Source of the DNA: a virus
Lineage: Duplodnaviria; Caudoviricetes
Reading direction: 5' to 3' (one strand)
DNA length: 39,087 bases
IMG/VR virus record: IMGVR_UViG_3300027732_000054
Coordinates: 1-39,087 of that record
In this document: positions 4,522 to 37,446 of the stretch, one piece after another
Position numbering within the stretch: position 1 is the stretch's first letter
Layout of the letters: each line of letters begins with the position of its first letter
Notes under the pieces: model-generated
Database searches by the model: none
What the model was told of the DNA's origin: nothing
The model's input: only the letters and a program-made list of their open reading frames with translations
Position numbers and translations under genes: made by a program

Positions 4522-4636
4522 GGCTAAGAAGTAGACTCTACATTTCCACGAAGGCACGAACATATCAAAATGATATAAATGTGACGCTTGTGAGTACAGG
4601 GGGTAAGAGCCCCGATAAATATGTCCTCAACAAATG

Positions 4637-7438: not shown

Positions 7439-7514
7439 TGGCGTCTCAGGCAGGACTTGAACCTACAACCTTTGGGGTAGAAACCCATTGCGCTATCCAT
7501 TGCGCCACTGAGAC
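7439..7514 (-). tRNA. tRNA-Arg(TCT)
   Basis: Acceptor GTCTCAG/CTGAGAC, D arm GCGC-AATGGATA-GCGC (A20), anticodon loop TTTCTAC, T arm GTAGG-TTCAAGT-CCTGC, encoded CCA. Confidence 0.93.
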
Positions 7515-7706: not shown

Positions 7707-7737
7707 GTTTTCACCTCCATCCCCTGTCGTACCTAAG

Positions 7738-8320: not shown

Positions 8321-8351
8321 TTGGTCACCCCCATTCCCTGTCATGCCTAGA

Positions 8352-8447: not shown

Positions 8448-8533
8448 GTAGCCCGCACGGCACGCCACCAACGCCCAGCGAACTCTGGGGGGGATATCTG
8501 GCAAGGAGGTCATTCCTCCGCAGTGTGGGCTAT
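8448..8533 (+). ncRNA. candidate structured ncRNA 1 (~86 nt)
   Basis: Starts at promoter +1, no ORF; 11 bp terminal stem GTAGCCCGCAC/GTGTGGGCTAT; internal stems. Confidence 0.6.
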
Positions 8534-8604
8534 TTTAGCGTCCCCATTTATTTCTGTTCCTGAGCCCCGGTTTTCTAAACCGATTATGTGTTCCTCAACC
8601 ATCT

Positions 8605-8618: not shown

Positions 8619-8874
8619 GAAATTGCCTACAGCCACGGAAATAAATAGCCGTTACGCTGGTCTTTTCTAACAACAAAATCAATGACAAAACACGGGGCTC
8701 CAGAGGCGTGGGAAATGGGGGTGTTGAGTGGGTTGTAGAGGAGTGCTATCACTCTGTTTTTGAGAGATATCAACCCCCAAGTAGGTCTCGCCTAGCCCCG
8801 ACAAAGCAATCAGCCCCACACCATTTGGCGTGAGGCTGACCACTGACAGGGAATTGCTTGGTTGGAATTGGCTA

Positions 8875-9129
8875 CTAGGGCAGGGGGCGTGTCGCCCCAT
8901 CTACTTCCCAGTACGAGTCTTCCCAGCAACGAACGAACTGGGGGTCAAGCCCCAACAGTGCGCCGTAACGCTGGGCAATGGCGGTTGCCTGCTCCTTGTT
9001 GATGCAGGGCATGGTCATAATGCCCGTGTCGCATTCATCACCCGTAGGTGACCGAAACCAAAAGTGGAGTTCGGTGTCAAGGATGCGGATGGCGGTGATA
9101 TCACCCTTGAGAATTGTCGTGAGTGTCAT
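8875..9129 (-). CDS. hypothetical protein
   Basis: Start MTLTTILKG via TAATG coupling, SD AGGAAAG. Confidence 0.7.
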   Translation of the reverse strand: MTLTTILKGDITAIRILDTELHFWFRSPTGDECDTGIMTMPCINKEQATAIAQRYGALLGLDPQFVRCWEDSYWEVDGATRPLP

Positions 9130-9336: not shown

Positions 9337-9426
9337 TATCGGACTGTCCATCACCTTAGTTCAGTCAGGTTTATCCACAGCCCTGTGGATAACTTTTGGT
9401 GAACTACCGTAATACCTATCCCGATA
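9337..9426. promoter_or_regulatory. divergent pair of class I promoters with inverted DnaA boxes
   Basis: TATCGG 9337, boxes 9371/9384, TGAACTA 9400, CCGATA 9421. Confidence 0.88.
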
Positions 9427-10485: not shown

Positions 10486-10511
10486 GTTCACCCCCTTCCC
10501 TGTCACCTATG

Positions 10512-10850: not shown

Positions 10851-10915
10851 GGGGGCTTGTCCAGCCCCCCTGCGATGGGGTCTTGCCCCTGTTGCCCCTG
10901 CGGTGGGGGCTATGT
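10851..10915 (-). repeat. conserved 3' structured element copy B
   Basis: GGGGGCTTGTCCAGCCCCC plus two covarying hairpins. Confidence 0.7.
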
Positions 10916-10925
10916 CCTGCGAGCG

Positions 10926-11060
10926 TCAGGCGAGCAATTCTGCGACTTGACGAGCGACCAACGCCTTCAGGCGATGGCAGTCGTTTCCGTGCGCTTCTTG
11001 CGCCTCAGCAAGCAGACGGAGCAGTTCCTGCGCCATCGCAACCCGATACGATACCTTCAT
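10926..11060 (-). CDS. 44 aa helical microprotein, copy 1 (not in ORF track)
   Basis: MKVSYRVAMAQELLRLLAEAQEAHGNDCHRLKALVARQVAELLA; 41/44 identical to 13495-13629. Confidence 0.9.
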   Translation of the reverse strand: MKVSYRVAMAQELLRLLAEAQEAHGNDCHRLKALVARQVAELLA

Positions 11061-11089
11061 TTTTTCACCTCGCTTCCCTGTCATCTAAG

Positions 11090-11143
11090 TATCGGCTCAG
11101 TCATTACATTGGTTCAATCGGAGTTATCCACACCTGTGGATAA
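11090..11143 (-). promoter_or_regulatory. class I promoter + inverted DnaA box pair
   Basis: TATCGG 11090, TGGTTCA 11110, boxes 11124/11135. Confidence 0.85.
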
Positions 11144-11228
11144 GTATCCACGAGCGTCAGCGCACCAGCGGGCGTGCGTGCGTGCGTGCGGGGGCGGAGC
11201 CCCGTATGTATGTGTTACGCAACAAACG

Positions 11229-11242
11229 ACGGTGGCGGAAAG
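11229..11242 (+). repeat. ACGGTGGCGGAAAG motif copy 3
   Basis: Perfect 14-mer. Confidence 0.85.
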
Positions 11243-11353
11243 GAAACGACACAAAGAAAGCGCAAACGAAAAAACGGGGCTATTCGGATTTATGACGGGA
11301 TAACACAAAGCCCCCTCACGCACTTGACGCAAGGGGGCTTGTTGGGGGGTGGG

Positions 11354-11844: not shown

Positions 11845-12255
11845 TTATTTGTACGGTATTAAGTTTTTTGCCCTAGCCGCCATGATTCTTTTTGCGGCTG
11901 TAGAGATGGTAATTCCTTGGGCATTTGCCACTGCCCGCTGTACTGGTACTCGTGCTTTATGAGCCGCCATATATATTTCTGCGACTTCCTGTAGGTCGTC
12001 ATCGGAGTGTGCTCGCCCTTGTCGTGAAGTTTTTTCACGCTTTCCTAGTATCCGTGAGAGGGCTGGCAACTTTACCGCCAGTTCATCACGAAAGATTTCT
12101 TCAAGTGAGATGCTCGACAGTGCTCTTCGTGAGACGGGCGTTGAGTCGGTTGTTTTAATTTTGACGGACATAATTTCTTGTCGTCCATTGACCAACTTGG
12201 TAGTGAGTGTGACATCCCACTTTTTCCCGATTTTGTCTGTAAATGTTTTTTTCAT
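11845..12255 (-). CDS. putative HTH DNA-binding protein (DUF6214-like C-terminus)
   Basis: Start MKKTF by ATGA overlap; LQEVAEIY..A...P.QRAVA...GITISTAAKRIMAAR. Confidence 0.65.
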   Translation of the reverse strand: MKKTFTDKIGKKWDVTLTTKLVNGRQEIMSVKIKTTDSTPVSRRALSSISLEEIFRDELAVKLPALSRILGKREKTSRQGRAHSDDDLQEVAEIYMAAHKARVPVQRAVANAQGITISTAAKRIMAARAKNLIPYK

Positions 12256-12599
12256 TCCTCGTCCTCGTCGTATTCGTCCTCGTCCTCGCACCAGTCGCCC
12301 TGCCCGATGAGACTTGTGTAGCCTGCGTTCGGGTTCTCGTGGTCTGTGGTGACTGCGTTGATGAACTTCAGTCCACAGGACTCGTCCCACCAGACTTTCA
12401 GGGTGGCGAACATTTCCTCAGGAGTCCCCGTGAAAGTGCGGTCGGTACAATTAGTTCCGTTGTAGTTCTGGCGAAACCAGTCTGCTTGTTCCTCGTCCAT
12501 TGCCACATAGATTTTGTGGCAACCGTCAAAGGCTACGAGGATTGCGTCCTCAACAGCGGTTTCTACTCGGTCAAATAGTTCGTCAAGTGTTTTGGTCAT
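12252..12599 (-). CDS. hypothetical protein, leaderless; paralog of 29341-29676
   Basis: DGCHKIYVA.D.EQA.WF, SCGL.F..AV, PNAGY.SLI.QGD. Confidence 0.88.
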   Translation of the reverse strand: MTKTLDELFDRVETAVEDAILVAFDGCHKIYVAMDEEQADWFRQNYNGTNCTDRTFTGTPEEMFATLKVWWDESCGLKFINAVTTDHENPNAGYTSLIGQGDWCEDEDEYDEDEE

Positions 12600-13420: not shown

Positions 13421-13484
13421 GGGGGCTTATCCAGCCCCCCTACCCTGAGGTCGTGCCCCTGTGCCCCTGTGTCGGGGGCTATGT
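13421..13484 (-). repeat. conserved 3' structured element copy C
   Basis: GGGGGCTTATCCAGCCCCC plus two covarying hairpins. Confidence 0.7.
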
Positions 13485-13494
13485 GCGCTCGGTG

Positions 13495-13629
13495 CTAGGC
13501 GAGCAGTTCAGCCACTTGACGGGCTACCAGCGCCTGTAGGCGGTGGCAATCGTTGCTGTGGGCTGACTGCGCCTCTGCGAGCAAGCGCAAGAGTTCTTGC
13601 GCCATAGCCACTCGGTATGAGACTTTCAT
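13495..13629 (-). CDS. 44 aa helical microprotein, copy 2 (not in ORF track)
   Basis: MKVSYRVAMAQELLRLLAEAQSAHSNDCHRLQALVARQVAELLA; SD GGAGGTGA. Confidence 0.9.
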   Translation of the reverse strand: MKVSYRVAMAQELLRLLAEAQSAHSNDCHRLQALVARQVAELLA

Positions 13630-13660
13630 GTTTTCACCTCCGTTCCCTGTCATGTCTAGG

Positions 13661-13703
13661 TATCGGTTGGGTCGTTACATTGGTTCAGCGGGATTTATCC
13701 ACA
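13661..13703 (-). promoter_or_regulatory. class I promoter + DnaA box
   Basis: TATCGG 13661, TGGTTCA 13681, box 13695. Confidence 0.85.
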
Positions 13704-13810
13704 GGGTCGCCACTTGCCCGCAGGGTTCGTGTTCCCAGCGGGTGCGTGCGCGCGTGCGCCCTCATGCGTGTGCGGGGGCGGAGCCCCGATTATGTGTTAC
13801 GCAACGAGTG

Positions 13811-13824
13811 ACGGTGGCGGAAAG
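13811..13824 (+). repeat. ACGGTGGCGGAAAG motif copy 4
   Basis: Perfect 14-mer, 2 nt from stop of 13827 gene. Confidence 0.85.
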
Positions 13825-13826
13825 GG

Positions 13827-14033
13827 TTACCCTTCAACAGTTTCAATTTCATCTGAGACAGACCTGACATCCCAGCCGTAATGAAAGTTGAGCCACCTTG
13901 ACGCAAGTTCGGTTGCGACATCCAACAGTTCGTCGGGGCTCTTGCCCGCTATGTCAGGTTCTTCAAGGTCAAGTTCTACACTTGTTGTCATTGTGAAGAA
14001 GTCGCCAATGAAGGTAACGGTGTAGGGCTTCAT
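13827..14033 (-). CDS. hypothetical protein
   Basis: ATGA overlap with upstream gene. Confidence 0.72.
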   Translation of the reverse strand: MKPYTVTFIGDFFTMTTSVELDLEEPDIAGKSPDELLDVATELASRWLNFHYGWDVRSVSDEIETVEG

Positions 14034-15722: not shown

Positions 15723-15773
15723 TGAGTTCTCCGAGGTCCCGCTGTCACAGTAGCATTTACGGTGATAAAGCGA

Positions 15774-15892
15774 AGCACCCCCACGCCAAGTCGAGGGCGT
15801 GAGGGTGCTGTCTCCCCGACATGACAGGGATTGGGTGAAGGTTGTCGGGGGAGATGTTTTAGGGCAGGGCTTGCGCCCCACCCCCGAACAAT
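15774..15892 (-). ncRNA. candidate antisense sRNA / structured 3' UTR
   Basis: GCAA-loop hairpin, hairpin 15811-15854 with loop antisense to conserved leaders, terminator-like hairpin 15774-15809. Confidence 0.5.
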
Positions 15893-16099
15893 CTAGAGAC
15901 CGTATAGTAGGTTCCCTGTCGCTTTTCTGAGTGTCTCGGCAAGTGAGTAGTACGACTTGCCCAACTCTTGGACTGTGATTATGCCCCAGTAGCAATCCTT
16001 GTCGTGGCTTGCGATGAGTTTCTGAACCTCAGCCATTGCGCTGATGAGTTCGGAAATGGTGAGTGCCTGCGTTGTGCGCTCGGCGTAGGTGGTGGTCAT
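15893..16099 (-). CDS. hypothetical protein, leaderless
   Basis: ATG at +1. Confidence 0.8.
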   Translation of the reverse strand: MTTTYAERTTQALTISELISAMAEVQKLIASHDKDCYWGIITVQELGKSYYSLAETLRKATGNLLYGL

Positions 16100-16106
16100 G
16101 TCTATG

Positions 16107-16196
16107 TATCGGCTTAGTGATTACGCTAGTTCACTACACTTTATCCACAGGGGTGTGGATAAGTCTGACTGAACCAATATAACTCCTAAACCGATA
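16107..16196. promoter_or_regulatory. divergent pair of class I promoters with inverted DnaA boxes
   Basis: TATCGG 16107, boxes 16141/16154, TGAACCA 16170, CCGATA 16191. Confidence 0.88.
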
Positions 16197-17979: not shown

Positions 17980-18210
17980 GAAGCCCACCAGCGAGAGGGC
18001 GACTCTCCATCGGTTGCTCTCCATCTAGATAGAGAGCCGAAGCGTTCATAGTCCTTGCGGGTGCGTGTCGGGCAGAGGGTAGCGTGAGTGGTGGAGGGAC
18101 TGGGTACACCGCCTAGGACGGGTAGAGCCAGTATCGCATACTCAGAGGCGGTCGTAACCTTCAGAGGCTTGCGGTGCTATGTCCGCCCCCCGATGTTGCT
18201 GGTGGGCTAC
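17980..18210 (-). ncRNA. candidate structured ncRNA 2 (~230 nt)
   Basis: Starts GTAGCCC at promoter +1; perfect 11 bp terminal inverted repeat 17982-17992/18198-18208; nested stems. Confidence 0.68.
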
Positions 18211-29155: not shown

Positions 29156-29344
29156 TTATTCCTCATAGGTGTCAAACCCGTCAAGGGCTTCGGGGTACTC
29201 AGAGGAAGGCGACCCAAGTTGAGCAAGGCGTTCGTATAGCCCCGCCATCACTAGTGCCTTCTCGTTGGTGACACATTCCGTCCAGTCCTCGTATTGCGAG
29301 CCACTGACAGAGAATGCGATGGTGAAAGCGTGGTTGTAGGTCAT
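29156..29344 (-). CDS. hypothetical protein
   Basis: YNHAFTIAFSV...FDTYEE; ATGA overlap. Confidence 0.72.
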   Translation of the reverse strand: MTYNHAFTIAFSVSGSQYEDWTECVTNEKALVMAGLYERLAQLGSPSSEYPEALDGFDTYEE

Positions 29345-29676
29345 TCATCATCCTGTTCGTCGTCGTAATCCCAAGAGTCACCCTGACTAATGAGACTGAT
29401 GTAACCAGCGTTCGGGTCGGCGTGATTAGTGGCGACTGCGCTAACAAACCTCAGACCGCAAGAGTTGGTGTACCAACAGTCAAGTGCGGTAAGCATTTCG
29501 TCGCTCGTCCCCCGTACGGAGTATTCGTAGTTTTCCTCAAACCACTGTGCCTGCTCGTCGTCTAGAGCCACATAGATTTTGTGGCAACCGTCCCAAGCGA
29601 CAAGGAGAGCATCGCACATAGCGTCTGCGACTTTATCGGCAACCAGTGGGTGTAAGTCTCGGAGTTCCATCAGCAA
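29341..29676 (-). CDS. hypothetical protein; paralog of 12252-12599
   Basis: DGCHKIYVALDDEQA; start may be 29670. Confidence 0.85.
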   Translation of the reverse strand: MLMELRDLHPLVADKVADAMCDALLVAWDGCHKIYVALDDEQAQWFEENYEYSVRGTSDEMLTALDCWYTNSCGLRFVSAVATNHADPNAGYISLISQGDSWDYDDEQDDE

Positions 29677-30323: not shown

Positions 30324-30479
30324 CTGAGGACTACCGTCTGTAGCCCCGTTTTGCGTCATCGGTAGATACTTGTTCGCAACGATTGCTAATCTACAACGAT
30401 TGCTAATTGGATGGCTTGACGCAGTTTCGGAATATAAATGCGGGACTCTGTCTGCGCCTTTGGATAAATCACTTGGCGA

Positions 30480-30559
30480 TGTTGTGATTGCTACTAATAG
30501 ACAGTTCACTGTTGTAGGAAATAAAAAACGACTGAACCAAAATAATCACTAATCCGATA
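30480..30559 (+). promoter_or_regulatory. tandem class II and class I (A-tract) promoters
   Basis: TGTTGT-N12-TAG-ACA-GTTCA at 30480; AAAAAACGAC-TGAACCA 30533-N14-CCGATA 30554-N7-ATG. Confidence 0.8.
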
Positions 30560-30566
30560 GGGAGTT

Positions 30567-30950
30567 ATGAACACACTTACTATGCCCGAAGCAACAGCCA
30601 TTGCCATTATGGAATGGGCTAAGAATAAACTTGCCACCGTCGGCTACTTGGAGTTCTCCGACGATTGGTGGGAGTCCTACGACAACGATTGGGATATCAA
30701 CATTTGGCGTTCCGATATGAGCGAGGAAATCCGTGTCAATGCCTACCCGATGACATTCACTAATGGTGAATGGAATACTGACTTCTCTAACTGGGTGAGT
30801 TTGGGGACTCTCCGTGAGCCTGTTTCTTGGCAAGACGGACATTCGTGCGACCAATGCGGTGACCCGATGGGTGGCAAGTATGACGGTGACCAGCCAACTT
30901 TCTATGGCGAAGATGGTGTTGCTCATCTCCGCTGTACGCCCATTGAATAA
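30567..30950 (+). CDS. hypothetical protein, leaderless
   Basis: ATG at +1; C-terminal CDQC...HLRC. Confidence 0.8.
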   Translation: MNTLTMPEATAIAIMEWAKNKLATVGYLEFSDDWWESYDNDWDINIWRSDMSEEIRVNAYPMTFTNGEWNTDFSNWVSLGTLREPVSWQDGHSCDQCGDPMGGKYDGDQPTFYGEDGVAHLRCTPIE

Positions 30951-30962
30951 ATCTAAATCGCA

Positions 30963-30999
30963 GGTTGTTATTACTACTATTAGGGAGTTCAATATAACT
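30963..30999 (+). promoter_or_regulatory. class II promoter
   Basis: GGTTGT-N12-TAG-GGA-GTTCA-N8-ATG(31000). Confidence 0.82.
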
Positions 31000-31344
31000 A
31001 TGACCACTACACTCTTACAACGAACCAAAGACGCTATCGCTGACGGGAAAATCATTGGCGACGGGCATACCATCTTCAATCCCTCGTTCTACGCCCCTCA
31101 CTTCTCTGAGGACGAACTGCGTAAGGCGAAACTCATTCACACCTACAAGTCAGACAAGTCTGACCACAAGTCCACCATCTTTGGCAAGGACGGTAAGCCG
31201 ATGGAGAAACTCAAGGGCGTGTACAACCTCACTTTCTTGTATTGGCTCTGCGGTGCGCTCGGTATCAACTCGCACAACGACTACAACGGGCGTGGCTCAC
31301 AGGCAGACGAACTCGCTCGCCGTATCCGTAAGGAACTGGCATGA
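31000..31344 (+). CDS. hypothetical protein, leaderless
   Basis: MTTTLLQ; GVYNL.FL..L...LG......GRG.QA. Confidence 0.82.
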   Translation: MTTTLLQRTKDAIADGKIIGDGHTIFNPSFYAPHFSEDELRKAKLIHTYKSDKSDHKSTIFGKDGKPMEKLKGVYNLTFLYWLCGALGINSHNDYNGRGSQADELARRIRKELA

Positions 31345-31586
31345 GCGACAAAGCCCCATTCACCATCACCATCCACGATGAAGGCTCGTCATGGCACGAC
31401 TCATCCGTTCTAAAGGGATTGGTCAATCAGACCGTCTTGGTCACTACAAAAGATGGCTACATCTTTGACGGTGAAGTCACCTCGCTTGACGAGGGAACTA
31501 TCACTCTCTCTAACTCAGTTGTTGGCAACTCATGGACTGAGATGACGCTCGCACTAACGAGTATTACAAACATTCATTACTGCTAA
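31341..31586 (+). CDS. small beta-barrel (Sm/LSm-like) protein
   Basis: L.GLVNQTVLVTTKDG.IFDGEVTSLD...ITL; SD AAGGA. Confidence 0.6.
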   Translation: MSDKAPFTITIHDEGSSWHDSSVLKGLVNQTVLVTTKDGYIFDGEVTSLDEGTITLSNSVVGNSWTEMTLALTSITNIHYC

Positions 31587-31603
31587 ACAAATCTCACCCG
31601 TGA

Positions 31604-31640
31604 GGTTGTTATTACTAACAATAAGGAGTTCACTGTAACT
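31604..31640 (+). promoter_or_regulatory. class II promoter
   Basis: GGTTGT-N12-TAA-GGA-GTTCA-N8-ATG(31641). Confidence 0.8.
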
Positions 31641-31820
31641 ATGACCACCTACCACATTGAGTACATCATTCACCTAGAGGTTGAGGCTGAGAGTGAGGAC
31701 GAGGCATTGAAACTCGGCTCACAAGAACTTCACGACCTTGATGGTGACGGACTCGCCAACTGTTGCGAGTTCTTAGATATGGAAATCGTAAACAACGACG
31801 ACTTAGGAGAAACCGAATGA
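31641..31820 (+). CDS. 59 aa acidic protein, leaderless (VEAESEDEA motif; not in ORF track)
   Basis: MTTYHIEYIIHLEVEAESEDEALK. Confidence 0.8.
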   Translation: MTTYHIEYIIHLEVEAESEDEALKLGSQELHDLDGDGLANCCEFLDMEIVNNDDLGETE

Positions 31821-32014
31821 AGTATTACCGTGTAGGCATTTTTGCGTCCGTGAATGTGGAAGCAGAGAACGAGGACGAGGCTATACGCCAAGCCCGTGAC
31901 ATAGTTATTGACGGAGCAATCAAGACGCACGATTACGAGTTTGAGGCTCAAGACCGTGAACTTGACCCCGACCTGAACTTCCTAGAAATGATTGCTCAGG
32001 AGAAGGCAAAATGA
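31817..32014 (+). CDS. acidic protein (VEAENEDEA motif), tandem paralog
   Basis: SD AGGAG, ATGA overlap. Confidence 0.78.
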   Translation: MKYYRVGIFASVNVEAENEDEAIRQARDIVIDGAIKTHDYEFEAQDRELDPDLNFLEMIAQEKAK

Positions 32015-32439
32015 CGAAACTCATTGTTCATATCGGCACAGGCACGATTATTGACGCTGACGAATGTGTCATCGTTGATGTGGAAAAACTAGACGACCAC
32101 GACACGACTCTCGTAAACGATGGGGACGACTCCGATGTTGTTGAGGTTGCTGAACGACTCGGAAAGCCACTCAACCTGACGGACTTGACCTATCGCAACA
32201 CGGTTGCGTTCTCTCCGTCTGCTCTCCGTAGCGAAGCAGAGGAACAGTTGAGCAACGGTTACGCCACTGATGATGATGTTATTGCGTATCTGACTTGGAC
32301 TACCGAAGTAGCCACTGATGACGAACTGAACGAGGTCGCTGGTTACATTCTGAACGACGACGGGCTGTGGGGCGAATACAACACGACGGTAATGGACGGT
32401 ATGCGACAGGGTTTCGCTTGGTCTAAGGAGAAGAAGTAA
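32011..32439 (+). CDS. hypothetical acidic protein
   Basis: SD AGGAG, ATGA overlap. Confidence 0.8.
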   Translation: MTKLIVHIGTGTIIDADECVIVDVEKLDDHDTTLVNDGDDSDVVEVAERLGKPLNLTDLTYRNTVAFSPSALRSEAEEQLSNGYATDDDVIAYLTWTTEVATDDELNEVAGYILNDDGLWGEYNTTVMDGMRQGFAWSKEKK

Positions 32440-32717
32440 TGGAACTTATCAAGTTTGTAACGCCTTCAGACTTTTGGCTCAATGGCGTTGAGGCTGAGAT
32501 TGTATGGGACGACGCTCCCGAGGCAACCGAAGGCGTACACATCATTGTGGACGACAATGCCTCACGGGTGACCGACATCTTGGCAGACCCCGACCACCCT
32601 GAACACGACGAGTGGTCTGTGTGGGACGAGGACATCTTCTACTACTGCGAGTCCGAACAAGAATGGAAAGACCTTCTCGTCACAGGACATCACGACGGGT
32701 GGAGAGTTCTCCAATAA
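32439..32717 (+). CDS. hypothetical acidic protein
   Basis: TAATG coupling; DEDIFYYC. Confidence 0.78.
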   Translation: MELIKFVTPSDFWLNGVEAEIVWDDAPEATEGVHIIVDDNASRVTDILADPDHPEHDEWSVWDEDIFYYCESEQEWKDLLVTGHHDGWRVLQ

Positions 32718-32729
32718 ATCTGTCCGACA

Positions 32730-32766
32730 GGTTGTTATTACTACTAATAGAGAGTTCAATAAACTT
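32730..32766 (+). promoter_or_regulatory. class II promoter
   Basis: GGTTGT-N12-TAG-AGA-GTTCA-N8-ATG(32767). Confidence 0.82.
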
Positions 32767-32973
32767 ATGAGCATCACACTTGACCAACACACTTGCCCTC
32801 GTTGTTTCGGGGGTATCCCCAATGACCTACAGCGAGGTCGGTACATCGGAGCATTGTCACGCACCGACAACAAGACCTACATCTGTTCAGACTGCGGAAC
32901 GGCAGAGGGACTAGAGGACTATTTTGACCTTGGCTGTTCACCTCAATCCGAATGGCGAGTGAACCAATCGTGA
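32767..32973 (+). CDS. zinc-finger microprotein, leaderless
   Basis: CPRC...GALSRTDNKTYICSDCGTAE. Confidence 0.82.
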   Translation: MSITLDQHTCPRCFGGIPNDLQRGRYIGALSRTDNKTYICSDCGTAEGLEDYFDLGCSPQSEWRVNQS

Positions 32974-33308
32974 CCACCATCATTGACCCTTGTATCCATT
33001 GCGGAGAACCCACTGCGTTTGGCTCTGTCCGTGAGGACGGAACGCTCGTCGGCAAGTTTGTGAACCGTATCCCTGCCGACACTGAGGACGAGGAAACGGG
33101 CGAATACAAAGACGGGTATGCGTGTGCTGAGTGCGCTGGGTATGGGTGCGACGAATGCGATAAGCCGATTTACCTTGACTGCGAAACCCGTGTGGATTAT
33201 CAGGACGAGAGTGGCAAGTTCCACTACGGCAACTTTCACGCCGAGTGTTACAACGAAGCGAAGCACGGCAAAGCCGAATACGGCGAGAACATCAAGGAGA
33301 CTCTGTAA
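32970..33308 (+). CDS. multi-CxxC zinc-finger protein
   Basis: GTGA overlap; CIHC, FVNRIPAD, CAEC, CDEC, HAEC. Confidence 0.78.
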   Translation: MTTIIDPCIHCGEPTAFGSVREDGTLVGKFVNRIPADTEDEETGEYKDGYACAECAGYGCDECDKPIYLDCETRVDYQDESGKFHYGNFHAECYNEAKHGKAEYGENIKETL

Positions 33309-33622
33309 TGCGTGAAATAGACCTATCCGTACGGAACGCCGACAACTCTTGGTATTGGCAACAAATCCGTGAGTACAGCAACAAGCAAGTCCATCGGCTA
33401 CGAGCGAACATTCGTCGTAATGCCTATGACAATCAGTCGCACGCCAACATTGAGAAATGGTCTGACGAGCGAGGCTGGGTCATCATCTCTTCTCACCCCA
33501 TCACAGACTATCCGTGCGTCAAGGTTTCGTATGTCACGAAAGAACTCACCGACAACGACCATGAGTGGTTCATTCAGACCGCCGAGGAACTGTTCACTAT
33601 TGGGGTGACATTCGCACGATGA
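33308..33622 (+). CDS. hypothetical protein
   Basis: SD AAGGAG, TAATG; IRRNAYDNQS.A.IE.W. Confidence 0.75.
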   Translation: MREIDLSVRNADNSWYWQQIREYSNKQVHRLRANIRRNAYDNQSHANIEKWSDERGWVIISSHPITDYPCVKVSYVTKELTDNDHEWFIQTAEELFTIGVTFAR

Positions 33623-33894
33623 GAACTATCACCGTTACACAAACATACGAACTCATCGTATCCATTGAGACTCAAGTCCCCGACGACTACAAGTACGAGG
33701 ATATGGAAAACTCATTCATTGACTTCCCTATTCGGGTTGATGTGAACCCCGTATGGGAAGATACCGAGAATGTCAAGGTCGTTGGAGTATGCGTGGACGC
33801 TCTTGTATCTCTAACGGGCGAGGACGCTTTCGCTCTTTATGAAATGAAAGACGACGAATACACTCGTTTGGTTGAGGAGAGTGACAATGAGTGA
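33619..33894 (+). CDS. hypothetical acidic protein
   Basis: ATGA overlap. Confidence 0.7.
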   Translation: MRTITVTQTYELIVSIETQVPDDYKYEDMENSFIDFPIRVDVNPVWEDTENVKVVGVCVDALVSLTGEDAFALYEMKDDEYTRLVEESDNE

Positions 33895-34117
33895 CTCTCA
33901 CGACTTCACTGGTGTTATCCGTATGGACTTTGATTGTGCGACAGACTCTCGTAAGGAAGTCATCGTACAGTTACCCGTGGACAAGAATGACCCTCAGCAA
34001 AATGTATGCGTCGTCGTGTTCACTGACGAGGGAGTCATCTTTGACTTCTACGAGGATGGCGAACTCTCTCGTACGCTTGGTCGCACTTATGAAGAGTGGT
34101 CTGACCTAGCACTATGA
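33887..34117 (+). CDS. hypothetical protein
   Basis: SD GAGGAG; FTDEGVIFDFY. Confidence 0.72.
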   Translation: MSDSHDFTGVIRMDFDCATDSRKEVIVQLPVDKNDPQQNVCVVVFTDEGVIFDFYEDGELSRTLGRTYEEWSDLAL

Positions 34118-34192
34118 GTGTCGTTAGTCACTTAGGTTGTGATTACGCCTATCTGTTCTTATTATCAACTATCAAGTAAACGAAAGGGAAAT

Positions 34193-34585
34193 ATGACTAC
34201 GACGAACATTGTCCGCAAGCCAAGTGGTGTTATTGATTTTGACGCATACAAAGGGCTAGAGGGAAGTATCGGACTAACGGGCATGACCTTCACCGTCAAG
34301 GTGATTGACGCTCGCCAGTCCTTTGGACGACTAGACCTCTGCGTTGAGCCTCTTCACGGCGAAGGCTCTCGTTGGATGGAATACCGCAAGGTGGAACTCA
34401 AGAGCGAGCCAGTGCGTTCAGAAATCACCACAACAGAAGTAACGACAGTCCGAGAGCAGGTTGCTCAACGAGCGATTGAGGCTTCTCGGGGAAATGGGTC
34501 AAGTAACACTGACCTCATTCAGCAACTGCTGAACCAAATAAACAACGGCAAGATTGCCACACAAACAAAGGAAACAATCAAATGA
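34193..34585 (+). CDS. hypothetical protein
   Basis: SD AAGGGA; V.VIDARQSFGRLD..V.P..G.G..W. Confidence 0.75.
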   Translation: MTTTNIVRKPSGVIDFDAYKGLEGSIGLTGMTFTVKVIDARQSFGRLDLCVEPLHGEGSRWMEYRKVELKSEPVRSEITTTEVTTVREQVAQRAIEASRGNGSSNTDLIQQLLNQINNGKIATQTKETIK

Positions 34586-34923
34586 AGCGTATCGTATTTG
34601 AGAACCCCACCGTCGCCAAGCGTGGACGCAGTGGCGGGGCTGTACAAGAGTTCATCACCAAACTGAGCGAGACTCCTGATAAGTGGGCTGTCTATACCCG
34701 TAGTGCCAACCACATCTCCTACTACTACACAGTGGCGAGCAAGATGGGTAACCTCAAAATCGCCGTTCGTGCGAATAGCGATGGCAAGACTCATACCGTT
34801 TACATGATGTACTTGGGAGTGGAAGCAACCAAGACTCGTGTTGCGGAGAAGGCGAACAAGAAGGCGAACAAGATGGTAGTCGTCAAGAAGGCGACTGCTA
34901 AGAAAGTCACCGTCAAGAAGTGA
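34582..34923 (+). CDS. basic protein with Lys/Ala-rich tail, putative DNA-binding
   Basis: P.KWAV; C-terminal KKANKM..KKATAKKVTVKK. Confidence 0.7.
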   Translation: MKRIVFENPTVAKRGRSGGAVQEFITKLSETPDKWAVYTRSANHISYYYTVASKMGNLKIAVRANSDGKTHTVYMMYLGVEATKTRVAEKANKKANKMVVVKKATAKKVTVKK

Positions 34924-34928
34924 TTGTG

Positions 34929-34954
34929 TCAGGGGTGGGGAAACCTGCCCCTGA
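34929..34954 (+). terminator. GNRA-capped hairpin after gene
   Basis: TCAGGGGTGGG-GAAA-CCTGCCCCTGA. Confidence 0.55.
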
Positions 34955-34970
34955 TAAATCCATCTAGTCG

Positions 34971-35007
34971 GGTTGTTATTACAATAACTAGGCTGTTCAC
35001 TGAAGGT
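34971..35007 (+). promoter_or_regulatory. class II promoter (leadered)
   Basis: GGTTGT-N12-TAG-GCT-GTTCA; SD AAGGGGA before ATG 35036. Confidence 0.78.
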
Positions 35008-35035
35008 ATAACCACTACTACTAAAGGGGACTACT

Positions 35036-35770
35036 ATGCCGAACTGGTGCTATAACCGAATGAATGTTACGGGCGACCGTGACTCACTAGTCAAACTCAC
35101 TGAAGCGATTACTCGTAAGCACGACTCGTCGCTCGCTGAGACAACGATGGGCGTTGAGCAAGTGGACTACGACCTATCTGTCTTGTTCCCCGTTCCTGAT
35201 GAACTCCGAATAACGGCGATGTTCTTTAATACCGAAACCGACGACCCTGAATACCAAGAACTTCTCAAGAAGTACGAAGCGAACAAGGCGAAGTACGGTC
35301 ACACTACTTGGTACGACTGGGCTATCAACAACTGGGGTACGAAGTGGTCGCCTCGCATTGAGGAGTGGACTATCAACGACTACCCTAATGGTAGCGAAAT
35401 CTATGCGTACTACGAGACTGCGTGGTCGCCTGCTGACGGACTTATCCGTGAAGTGAGTAGGCAGTTCCCCACACTCCTATTCACAGTTTCGTCTGATGAG
35501 GAAGGTCGCTCATTCTCTTGCGTAATGGCGTTCAGTAAAGGCGAGATGGTCGCTGAGGCTGGTTGCGAACTAGACGCTAATAAAGTTCCTGAGCAGTTCC
35601 GTGAGGCTTATGCGAGGATAGACAAGGAAATAGAGACTGGCACAAGTGACAGAAACTATGACGCTTGGGACGAGATGAGCGAACTTGACAGCGATGTTCT
35701 CGGCTGGTTGGAGACTCAAGTGAACAACCGACTGGTTGAGTTGGGGCTATTACCGAAGTTGAGCGTATGA
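35036..35770 (+). CDS. DUF1281/YubB-like (Api92-like ferredoxin-fold) protein
   Basis: MPNWCYN, WYDW...NWGTKW, YETAWSP. Confidence 0.85.
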   Translation: MPNWCYNRMNVTGDRDSLVKLTEAITRKHDSSLAETTMGVEQVDYDLSVLFPVPDELRITAMFFNTETDDPEYQELLKKYEANKAKYGHTTWYDWAINNWGTKWSPRIEEWTINDYPNGSEIYAYYETAWSPADGLIREVSRQFPTLLFTVSSDEEGRSFSCVMAFSKGEMVAEAGCELDANKVPEQFREAYARIDKEIETGTSDRNYDAWDEMSELDSDVLGWLETQVNNRLVELGLLPKLSV

Positions 35771-35785
35771 CCCGTAGGTCACCCG

Positions 35786-36043
35786 TCAGTATTTGGGAGC
35801 AGACTTCTTCTTGGGCTTACCCTCTACGACGGCTTCTTCAGCAGGGGCTTCCTCTGCTACGGCTTCTTCAGTGACGACTTCCTCACTAGGTACTTCAGCG
35901 GACGGGGCTTCCTCTACTACGGGGACAGTCTCGGCAACGGGTGCTACCTCTAAGTGTCCACAGTTCTCGTCGTGGGTGTGTTCCTCGGCTACGGCACGGG
36001 CCAAGTTCTTTGCCTCTCGCTCTTGGGGGGTAAGTTTACGCAT
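35786..36043 (-). CDS. low-complexity Glu/Ala/Val-rich protein
   Basis: Start MRKLTPQE after GAGG; EEAP/EEAV repeats; HTHDENCGH. Confidence 0.62.
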   Translation of the reverse strand: MRKLTPQEREAKNLARAVAEEHTHDENCGHLEVAPVAETVPVVEEAPSAEVPSEEVVTEEAVAEEAPAEEAVVEGKPKKKSAPKY

Positions 36044-36102
36044 GATAGAAACCTCGCTAGTTGTAAGTGTGGATACCATGATACCTAACTTATCCCCAAC
36101 CC

Positions 36103-36145
36103 TGTGGATAACCGCCACTGAACTAATGTAATCACCAAACCGATA
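36103..36145 (+). promoter_or_regulatory. class I promoter + DnaA box
   Basis: TGTGGATAA 36103, TGAACTA 36119, CCGATA 36140; degenerate boxes at 36068 and 36090. Confidence 0.86.
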
Positions 36146-36152
36146 GGAAGTT

Positions 36153-36650
36153 ATGACCACCCAGATGACACAAACTGAAGCAGAAAATCGCTACAAACAG
36201 GGCATTCGTGACCTTATTGAGAAGTGGGGTGGGCATAGCAATATCCCGTCCGCTGAGTTGCGAGATATATCTGAGGAACTACGGGCGTACTACATTGTCC
36301 TGAAGCATGAGGGTGCTGTCACACGGCAGATACTTAGTCAATACATGGTGTCACCAACCATCATTGAGCGTGTCATGTCAAGTATCGGAGTAGACGGGGA
36401 AGTGGGGGCTATTACCCCTAGGACTAGTCGCTCTGACCAATACAAGGCGTTCACTAAGTGGGCGTGTGAGCATGACCGTGAGCAGTTCACTACCGACCAA
36501 CTGGTTGAGGTATCGGGCTTCTCGTATCAAACGACGCTGAAGTTCGTGGACTCTGACCCCAACTTCATTCGTATCAAGAAGGGTCTGTATGAGTGCCGTG
36601 ACTACAACGCCTTACGCATTGAGTCAAAGAAGTTAGAAAAATCTCAGTAA
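36153..36650 (+). CDS. putative winged-helix DNA-binding protein, leaderless
   Basis: ATG at +1; FTTDQLVEVSGFSYQTTLKFV...FIRIKKGLY. Confidence 0.72.
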   Translation: MTTQMTQTEAENRYKQGIRDLIEKWGGHSNIPSAELRDISEELRAYYIVLKHEGAVTRQILSQYMVSPTIIERVMSSIGVDGEVGAITPRTSRSDQYKAFTKWACEHDREQFTTDQLVEVSGFSYQTTLKFVDSDPNFIRIKKGLYECRDYNALRIESKKLEKSQ

Positions 36651-36652
36651 TA

Positions 36653-36729: not shown

Positions 36730-37446
36730 ATGACCACCATTGACTTGCCAAAGTGTTGGCAGAAGTACAAGAACGCACTTGAGGGCGGTATTGACCGCAT
36801 CATTCTGTTCGGACCATCGGGTACGGGCAAGACCTACGGGGGACTCAACTACGGGGATACCCGTGGTGGTGCTTTCAGACTCGTATGTACTGAGGATATG
36901 ACGAACGCCGATGTATCGGGTTCATTCATGCCTTCCGCTAATGGCGGTTTCTCATGGGTTAGCGGTTCAGCACTGAGGGCTTGGGAAGGTAATGGCTACT
37001 CAGGTGGACGAGTTGTTGCTGACGAGATTGACAAGGCTGGTGGCGATGTACTTGCTACCCTGCTTTCGTTCTTTGACTCACCTGAGTCTGCCTCATGGGA
37101 ACACCCTGAGACTGGCAACATCCATAAGCCTCGTAACGGCTTCTCTGTGGTGATGACCACGAACATTGAGAACATGAGAGAGTTGCCAACGGCACTCACT
37201 GACCGCTTCCCTGTTCGTATTCGCATTGACGAACCGCACCCTGATGCGATTGCTCGCTTGTCGGCAGACCTGCGTGGTGTCGCTGTTCGTATGGCTGATG
37301 CTGGTAAGGAGCGTATCTCACTGCGAGCGTTCTACGCCTTTGACCAACTGCGTTCATCCCTCTCTGTTGAGGAGAGTGCGGAGATTGTGTTCGGTGACCG
37401 TGCTGGCGCAATCATGGATGCCATGCGAGTGGACTCATTGTCATGA
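36730..37446 (+). CDS. MoxR/CbbQ/CobS-like AAA+ ATPase
   Basis: Walker A GPSGTGKT, Walker B VVADEIDKA, sensor TTN, ALTDRF; SD AGGGAG. Confidence 0.9.
   Translation: MTTIDLPKCWQKYKNALEGGIDRIILFGPSGTGKTYGGLNYGDTRGGAFRLVCTEDMTNADVSGSFMPSANGGFSWVSGSALRAWEGNGYSGGRVVADEIDKAGGDVLATLLSFFDSPESASWEHPETGNIHKPRNGFSVVMTTNIENMRELPTALTDRFPVRIRIDEPHPDAIARLSADLRGVAVRMADAGKERISLRAFYAFDQLRSSLSVEESAEIVFGDRAGAIMDAMRVDSLS

Follow-up and report, generated by a model that had tools for sequence, protein, structure and literature searches.

Does a structured segment behind one phage gene encode an RNA that acts on other genes of the same genome? The question is raised by a row of three hairpins on the minus strand of a 39,087-nt virus record (IMGVR_UViG_3300027732_000054), the whole of which was analysed and is called the window here. 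The loop of the middle hairpin is antisense to the leaders of five small genes located 2.2-8.1 kb away, and a first-pass annotation had proposed that an RNA derived from the 3′UTR co-represses these genes in a manner reminiscent of type I antitoxins.

Source phage and promoter architecture

The window encodes a DUF932 protein, an SNF2 helicase, an AAA ATPase and a tRNA-Arg, its sequence was found in freshwater metagenomes, and it is a fragment of a large freshwater phage. A promoter-like motif, TGAACYA-N14-CCGATA, is present in 31 copies, usually downstream of a TGTGGATAA box. Seven bases after the motif stands an ATG in 20 copies, the GACAGGG leader in five and some other sequence in six; from this constant 7-nt spacing, the position 7 nt past the motif is taken as the putative transcription start (+1). 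The five leaders read (AU)GACAGGG…GGUGA at their predicted 5′ ends. Two Actinomycetota MAGs, one of them labelled acIV, which we take to be Acidimicrobiia, contain one copy of the motif apiece, suggesting an Acidimicrobiia host, and this class is probably the host of the phage. The lone copies in the two MAG contigs (L121:2945-2987 and L122:10001-10043) may perhaps be a host promoter that is mimicked by the phage.

Orthologous gene cassettes in relatives carry a wholly different promoter motif at all sites. The sets compared were the 31 sites of the window (TGAAC/CCGATA), G001 (L198-L200; CAACTA/CCGATA, at 90% genome identity), L210/L211 (AAATCC/GACAG), L202-L203 (TTGACA/TAnnnT) and L283 (GAAACTCTTACCCC), and the differences among them represent a genome-wide concerted replacement of promoters. 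In the window, G001 and L210, the examples counted have 42 nt between TGTGGATAA and the ATG. A second promoter-like class, AGGTTGTTATTAC-N12-GTTCA/GTTTAC, was found by motif match in 10 copies in the window (17957, 22349, 25674 and 29132 on the minus strand; 30479-36652 on the plus strand). Whole promoter-gene cassettes have been duplicated recently (10851-11243 versus 13462-13954, and 12252-12599 versus 29341-29676), and others have been swapped or lost between strains. Three promoter-driven units without an ATG, at 8448-8535 (plus strand), 18210 and 27516 (both minus strand), are candidate non-coding RNAs; that at 8448, which L126 also retains, folds as a multi-stem RNA closed by GUAGCCC...GGGCUAU (-43 kcal/mol), and G001 has preserved the starts at 18210 and 27516. 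A repeat, CAAC..ACGGTGGCGGAAAG, occurs at 4628, 5144, 8600, 11220, 13802, 25830 and 27641 and also in distant relatives; being asymmetric, it is possibly a protein-binding site.

The five leaders and their products

The leaders and the genes that follow them are these:

13630..13653, minus strand: target leader 1, predicted +1 at 13653, then a 44-aa ORF (13629-13495)
11061..11082, minus strand: target leader 2, then a 44-aa paralog ORF (11060-10926)
10486..10504, minus strand: target leader 3, then a 47-aa Cys-rich acidic ORF (10485-10342)
8321..8344, minus strand: target leader 4, then a 48-aa acidic ORF (8320-8174)
7707..7730, minus strand: target leader 5 (GACAGGGG variant), then a 47-aa acidic ORF (7706-7563)

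A sequence search of the window returned the leaders as first quoted, four of them exact and a weaker one at 7.72 kb, and ORF translation gave products of 44-48 aa, again as annotated. The products fall into four unrelated families. Three of the five are strongly acidic, and hydrophobic segments are absent from all of them (best Kyte-Doolittle mean over 19 residues, -0.77 to 1.03). The 44-aa family was modelled as a helical hairpin (pLDDT 91), for which no fold match was found at E<=0.001; the target proteins had no Pfam match at E<=0.01, no NCBIfam match at the curated cut-off and no match in PHROGs or the Atlas. The 48-aa acidic family is widespread among related phages.

A conserved N-terminal peptide, with the leader ATG in frame (MTGxGGE), was considered as the main constraint on the leaders and rejected, because two of the leaders begin only past the AT, one reads ACG, and homologs use other frames. 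The target genes share a 3′ module, ACAUAGCCC..GGGC..GGGGGGCUGGAUAAGCCCC, across lineages (13497-13400, 10928-10830 and 10344-10250 on the minus strand of the window; L126:703-800; L210:804-890; L211 near 9260), within which ACAGGGG partly matches the leader tag. A tRNA-Arg(UCU) gene (7439-7514, minus strand) lies directly 3′ of the 3′ hairpin of target gene 7706.

Element A and its predicted pairing

The structured segment, designated element A, comprises the following features:

16107..16133, minus strand: predicted promoter (TGAACYA-N14-CCGATA) for the A transcript
15893..16099, minus strand: 68-aa leaderless ORF with A in its 3′UTR; its 3′ end is replaced in relatives
15765..15885, minus strand: element A, the whole structured 3′UTR RNA as folded (covariance model (CM) hit, 15767-15887)
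15861..15884, minus strand: hairpin 1, with a GNRA (GCAA) tetraloop and G-U pairs; GAAA in relatives
15811..15854, minus strand: display stem around the anti-leader loop (arms 15811-15821/15843-15854)
15822..15842, minus strand: anti-leader loop of 21 nt, with an anti-SD block (UUCACCC) and an anti-5′-end block (UCCCUGUCA)
15765..15809, minus strand: terminator-like hairpin (15774-15809) with compensatory changes, and a U-rich tail

The three hairpins were thus recovered where they had been annotated. The fold z-score of A is -6.65 on the minus strand and -3.0 on the plus strand, and its G-U pairs and GNRA loop work on the minus strand only. In the full transcript, the loop is predicted to be mostly 0.8-0.9 unpaired. 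Low-depth contigs of RNA run X20 cover A but also most of the stretch.

When loop A was ranked against the 31 predicted 5′ ends of the window, the five leaders took the top five places (-23.1 to -27.5 kcal/mol), with the best non-target 5′ end at -14.2 kcal/mol. The predicted duplex consists of two blocks, one of 8-10 bp on (AU)GACAGGGA at the extreme 5′ end of the leader and the other of 6-7 bp on GGUGAA, over the SD. None of 3,000 shuffled versions of loop A paired as well with the five leaders. Exact TGACAGGGA occurs six times in the 39 kb, namely in four leaders and in two antisense copies, one in A and the other at 8844 in a second element described below. Among 139 seed matches, no other unpaired non-self site scores as well as A (unpaired, 0.88), and A ranks fourth of 220 among windows after stop codons.

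Energy alone, however, fails to isolate A: when 26,042 windows were scanned in reverse, the score of A (-25.2) was slightly exceeded by that of a minus-strand coding site at 29328 (-26.6) and equalled by that of a site at 37195 on the plus strand (-25.1). A third element at 29328 was rejected, since this site is coding (FSVSG codons) within a conserved gene and shows synonymous changes in the ortholog from G002, a phage without the leaders. A CM search (R1) found no third copy of these elements in the window.

Element B, a paralog of A

A paralog of A, absent from the first-pass annotation, lies in the 3′UTR of another gene:

9337..9363, minus strand: predicted promoter of the 9329-9129-B transcript
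8875..9129, minus strand: upB, an 84-aa ORF with B in its 3′UTR
8802..8903, minus strand: element B, with the seed AUUCCCUGUCA at 8844-8854 and a terminator at about 8806-8846

Elements A and B have CCCUGCCCUA and the terminator in common. B also ranks the five leaders first among the 31 predicted 5′ ends, and 7 of 3,000 shuffled B loops paired as well with them. Its predicted pairing lies mainly on leader nt 1-11, the SD pairing being short and irregular. The B seed is predicted to be open in an RNA ending at the U-tract and paired in a transcript that reads on. Among the 220 windows after stop codons, B ranks fourteenth.

Conservation in close relatives

The phage G001 (about 90% nucleotide identity), whose promoters differ from those of the window in the -35 box, retains A (95%), B and two leaders. 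The second half of the ORF upstream of A has been replaced in G001, yet A has been retained. Its loop A carries two C-to-U changes, one yielding a G-U pair and the other a Watson-Crick pair with GGAGGUGAA, so that the DNA motif is broken while the RNA pairing is kept through G-U; the two leaders of G001 rank first and second among 30 5′ ends for its own loop. In the linker of B, there are 4 changes in 10 nt, whereas the following 24 nt are unchanged and the seed is invariant.

Assembled contigs from four runs show GCAA changed to GAAA in hairpin 1 and two further upstream gene ends; in their terminators, one G-C to A-U compensatory change and one single G-U change were seen. In the terminator alignment, 65 of 65 cells are paired and two pairs are changed on both sides between A and B, a covariation signal that is weak because it comes from five related sequences. 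One contig loop variant differs by three substitutions and the loss of 3 nt, yet by eye agrees with leader 8344 at 16 of 17 positions; it is represented by a single 106-nt contig (depth, 4.2).

The strict leader pattern had no match in viral contigs, and the 119 loci matching a loose pattern were rejected as chance matches, none having two promoters. A relaxed promoter pattern matched more than once in L120 only, and a hairpin-terminator pattern was found in G001 only. The eight rows returned by a metagenome scan comprised the window's own contig (three), an unrelated AT-rich contig (one) and three close relatives, L126 appearing twice. The CM search R1 gave nothing significant in other loci or in five whole records, the INPHARED phages searched yielded nothing useful, and neither leaders nor an anti-leader hairpin are present in the 36.7 kb of G002 that were examined.

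Matched hairpins in other lineages and the origin of the leader tag

Phages at about 73% helicase identity, as well as G013, use the promoter AAATCC..-N11-GACAG-N7-+1, in which GACAG is the -10 box, and their SD-led genes begin with (AU/GU)GGAGGUGA. This suggests that the GACAGGG tag of the window probably began as a captured -10 box of the sister clade's promoter, and the loop probably tracked the captured tag. Capture of the -10 box could by itself explain why the tag is common to the five leaders.

In G013 and G008, the 3′UTR of the upB ortholog contains a long stem with the loop UCACCUCCA; in G008, this placement is provisional, since a short masked stretch in L266 obscures the end of the ortholog. 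Ranked against 46 predicted 5′ ends of G013, 43 of which begin with ATG, the G013 loop placed the four SD-led leaders of this phage at the top. Three of the four encode homologs (48-50%) of window ORFs 13629/11060. The SD makes up nearly the whole of the paired region. In G015, which has yet another promoter, a stem after the upB ortholog bears the tip UCGCCCCCUCG, with an 11-bp match to one of its own leaders; this leader ranks first of 17 (-24.1 versus -12.7 for the next), and the pairing segment lies partly inside a 4-bp apical stem. Among windows after stop codons, the G013 hairpin ranks second of 342 and the G015 hairpin fifth of 246. The covariation of loop and leaders in relatives for which the first-pass annotation had called is seen in the matched pairs of G013 and G015. 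Besides fold, complementarity and conservation, the sequences thus show matched loop/leader pairs in three phage lineages.

A cross matrix gave -19 to -27 for window loops with window leaders and -5 to -15 for window loops with sister leaders, indicating that the window loops are fitted to the extended 5′ end and make poor anti-SDs in general. The sister loops are near the plain 16S anti-SD and carry UCACCUCC. Sequence homology between the sister hairpins and A/B is not demonstrable (54% column identity; no CM match), and the link is one of position, architecture and, for G013, target family.

An anti-leader hairpin is absent at eight other upB loci, namely those of G002, G012 and six of the seven further loci examined (of eight; L278 was left out). 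L160 has a hairpin without an anti-SD loop, and its targets lie off the contig. A C-rich loop in G016 was rejected since its best partner (-30.2) is not a leader; together with site 29328, it indicates that chance produces such matches. Directly after the upB ortholog of G002 stands the ortholog of the gene that lies downstream of A in the window, a gene order which suggests that A and B may have arisen from one ancestral locus.

Comparison with known systems

The c4 RNA of phages P1 and P7 is cut from a longer transcript and uses two pairing blocks, one over the RBS and one upstream for specificity, which differs between related phages (PMC5320573, PMC12197685). Element A resembles it as a phage RNA predicted to act in trans on the phage's own mRNA through bipartite, lineage-specific pairing with the RBS and an upstream block. 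However, both blocks of A lie in one 21-nt loop within three consecutive hairpins, whereas c4 has a three-stem fold with separate a′ and b′ loops; A is located in a 3′UTR and faces five dispersed monocistronic targets rather than one antirepressor operon; and no sign of an immunity region surrounds it. The Rfam C4 model gave no match at E<=1 in the window, L197, L268 or L126. A and B are thus like c4 in working, yet outside the C4 family by Rfam and fold.

As a structured non-coding segment that ends in a terminator and is conserved as RNA, A also resembles trans-encoded sRNAs of the 3′UTR type, with an accessible seed, imperfect pairing to several unlinked mRNAs and covariation of seed and targets, as predicted. 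FasX of Streptococcus pyogenes likewise places a CU-rich segment on the extreme 5′ end of a target and blocks an RBS with a second segment, but it is chromosomal, has its own promoter and stabilizes ska by 5′-end pairing (PMC4691137); no Rfam match relates A to the FasX family.

In cluster K mycobacteriophages, a conserved SD-containing motif (SAS) precedes some of the non-structural genes, and one further copy, inverted, lies apart from the starts of genes; its authors left open whether an RNA or a protein is the partner (PMC3203893), and a 2025 paper, as far as its available text goes, likewise leaves open the role of SAS and of the inverted copy (PMC12699233). The window shares with them an actinobacterial phage setting and an asymmetric SD-containing repeat before a subset of genes, here five leaders with two inverted copies. 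The 13-bp SAS consensus, GGGATAGGAGCCC, differs by eye from the GACAGGG..GGUGA of the window leaders. SAS has 11-19 copies and ESAS inverted repeats, and a hairpin context or covariation of the inverted SAS is not described in the available text (PMC3203893).

Described phage sRNAs that act on the phage's own genes mostly control one gene or operon in the lysis-lysogeny switch, according to the portions of PMC12197685 available. In the open-access literature searched, we found no phage RNA that gates several dispersed early genes of its own phage via a shared 5′ tag, and the accessible parts of the phiKZ and 201phi2-1 papers describe no such RNA.

Proposed mechanism

The first-pass reading of A as a minus-strand 3′UTR RNA that pairs in trans with five leaders and their SDs is borne out by folding, target ranking, conservation and cross-lineage matching. 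We think it probable, with some reserve, that A acts as a c4-like translational repressor of a small early-gene regulon. Of the co-repression first proposed, the predicted pairing with leaders and SDs stood; repression itself and processing to a free sRNA are putative. From the sequence evidence, we infer the expression, processing, sign of effect and timing of the A RNA as follows. One promoter class would fire both the gene upstream of A and the targets, and the RNA would therefore accumulate together with the targets or later than they do. Bounded by the 5′ GNRA hairpin and the terminator, a stable 3′ fragment of about 120 nt would remain; alternatively, the RNA may act as part of its mRNA. 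Each target would insert its free 5′ end into the A loop and form the two helices described above, of which that on GGUGAA would hide the SD and block translation. A few SD-led small proteins would thereby be made in a short burst and then shut off within a mostly leaderless early programme. B, covering mainly the first ~11 nt, may assist, stabilize or compete.

Five other readings were weighed against repression by A. The pairing might instead activate the same leaders, the duplex at the 5′ end protecting the mRNA from 5′-end-dependent decay. This would fit B best, whose invariant seed pairs with nt 1-11 and only briefly and irregularly with the SD, and the action of FasX on ska offers a precedent (PMC4691137); the hairpins of A, G013 and G015, however, all cover the SD, which in G013 is nearly all that is paired, and we regard activation as unlikely. 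It is quite improbable that no RNA pairing is involved and that the loop is an inverted, decaying promoter/leader copy or a DNA operator between ordinary 3′ hairpins. In favour of it, sister phages use GACAG as a -10 box, a 13-nt stretch of A (GACATGACAGGGA) recurs at the promoter-leader junction of 13653, and the leaders may owe their common tag to descent alone. Against this, no plus-strand promoter of either type, as judged by the -35 box, was found upstream of A or B, the G001 change spares the RNA pairing at the expense of the DNA motif, A is kept while its neighbours are replaced, and different matched pairs occur at the orthologous site elsewhere.

A general anti-SD decoy, directed against SD-led host mRNAs and sparing the mostly leaderless messages of the phage, would suit the ATG starts at 20 of 31 window and 43 of 46 G013 predicted 5′ ends and the UCACCUCC of the sister loops. 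This reading is nonetheless very improbable: loop A pairs poorly with plain GGAGGUGA leaders (-9 to -11) and B more poorly still, and two candidate-host MAGs show no enrichment of the leader pattern (0 and 3 matches versus 1 and 1 in controls). Type I toxin-antitoxin systems comprise small ORFs under antisense control of translation, the toxin being a small hydrophobic membrane protein and the antitoxin overlapping or adjoining its gene. The size of the products and the predicted SD occlusion recall such systems, and early phage proteins are often toxic to the host. That A is an antitoxin of small toxic peptides is still hardly credible, and the antitoxin likeness first proposed finds no support here, since the five products lack hydrophobic segments, fall into four unrelated families and have no matches in Pfam and NCBIfam at the above cut-offs, and the RNA is not encoded at their loci. 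Finally, a resident phage could use the RNA to silence the SD-led early genes of an incoming sibling, as in the heteroimmunity determined by c4 in P1/P7 (PMC5320573, PMC12197685). The loop/leader pairs are lineage-specific, as such a role would have it; but the RNA and its targets depend on one and the same class of promoter, turnover of promoters is enough to explain the change of leaders, and no integrase or repressor match was found among the 39 proteins scanned of this incomplete genome, which makes exclusion of siblings a distinctly improbable function.

Repression by A may be part of something broader. We put forward, tentatively and as a possibility that we would not yet favour, a heritable phage riboregulon with a swappable barcode, in which one 3′UTR RNA gates the few SD-led early genes of a large-phage family with a mostly leaderless early gene set. 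When the promoter type is replaced, the 5′ ends of the mRNAs would change, the captured old -10 box becoming the tag, and the loop would be rewritten to match. The natural lineage-specific loop/leader pairs make a swap matrix testable without the host, and they may provide a source of small orthogonal RNA repressor-leader pairs for actinobacteria. The model also offers a concrete hypothesis for the role of SAS in cluster K mycobacteriophages. If true, the riboregulon would explain the lone inverted SAS of these phages, and anti-leader RNAs would represent a general, overlooked layer of phage early-gene timing.
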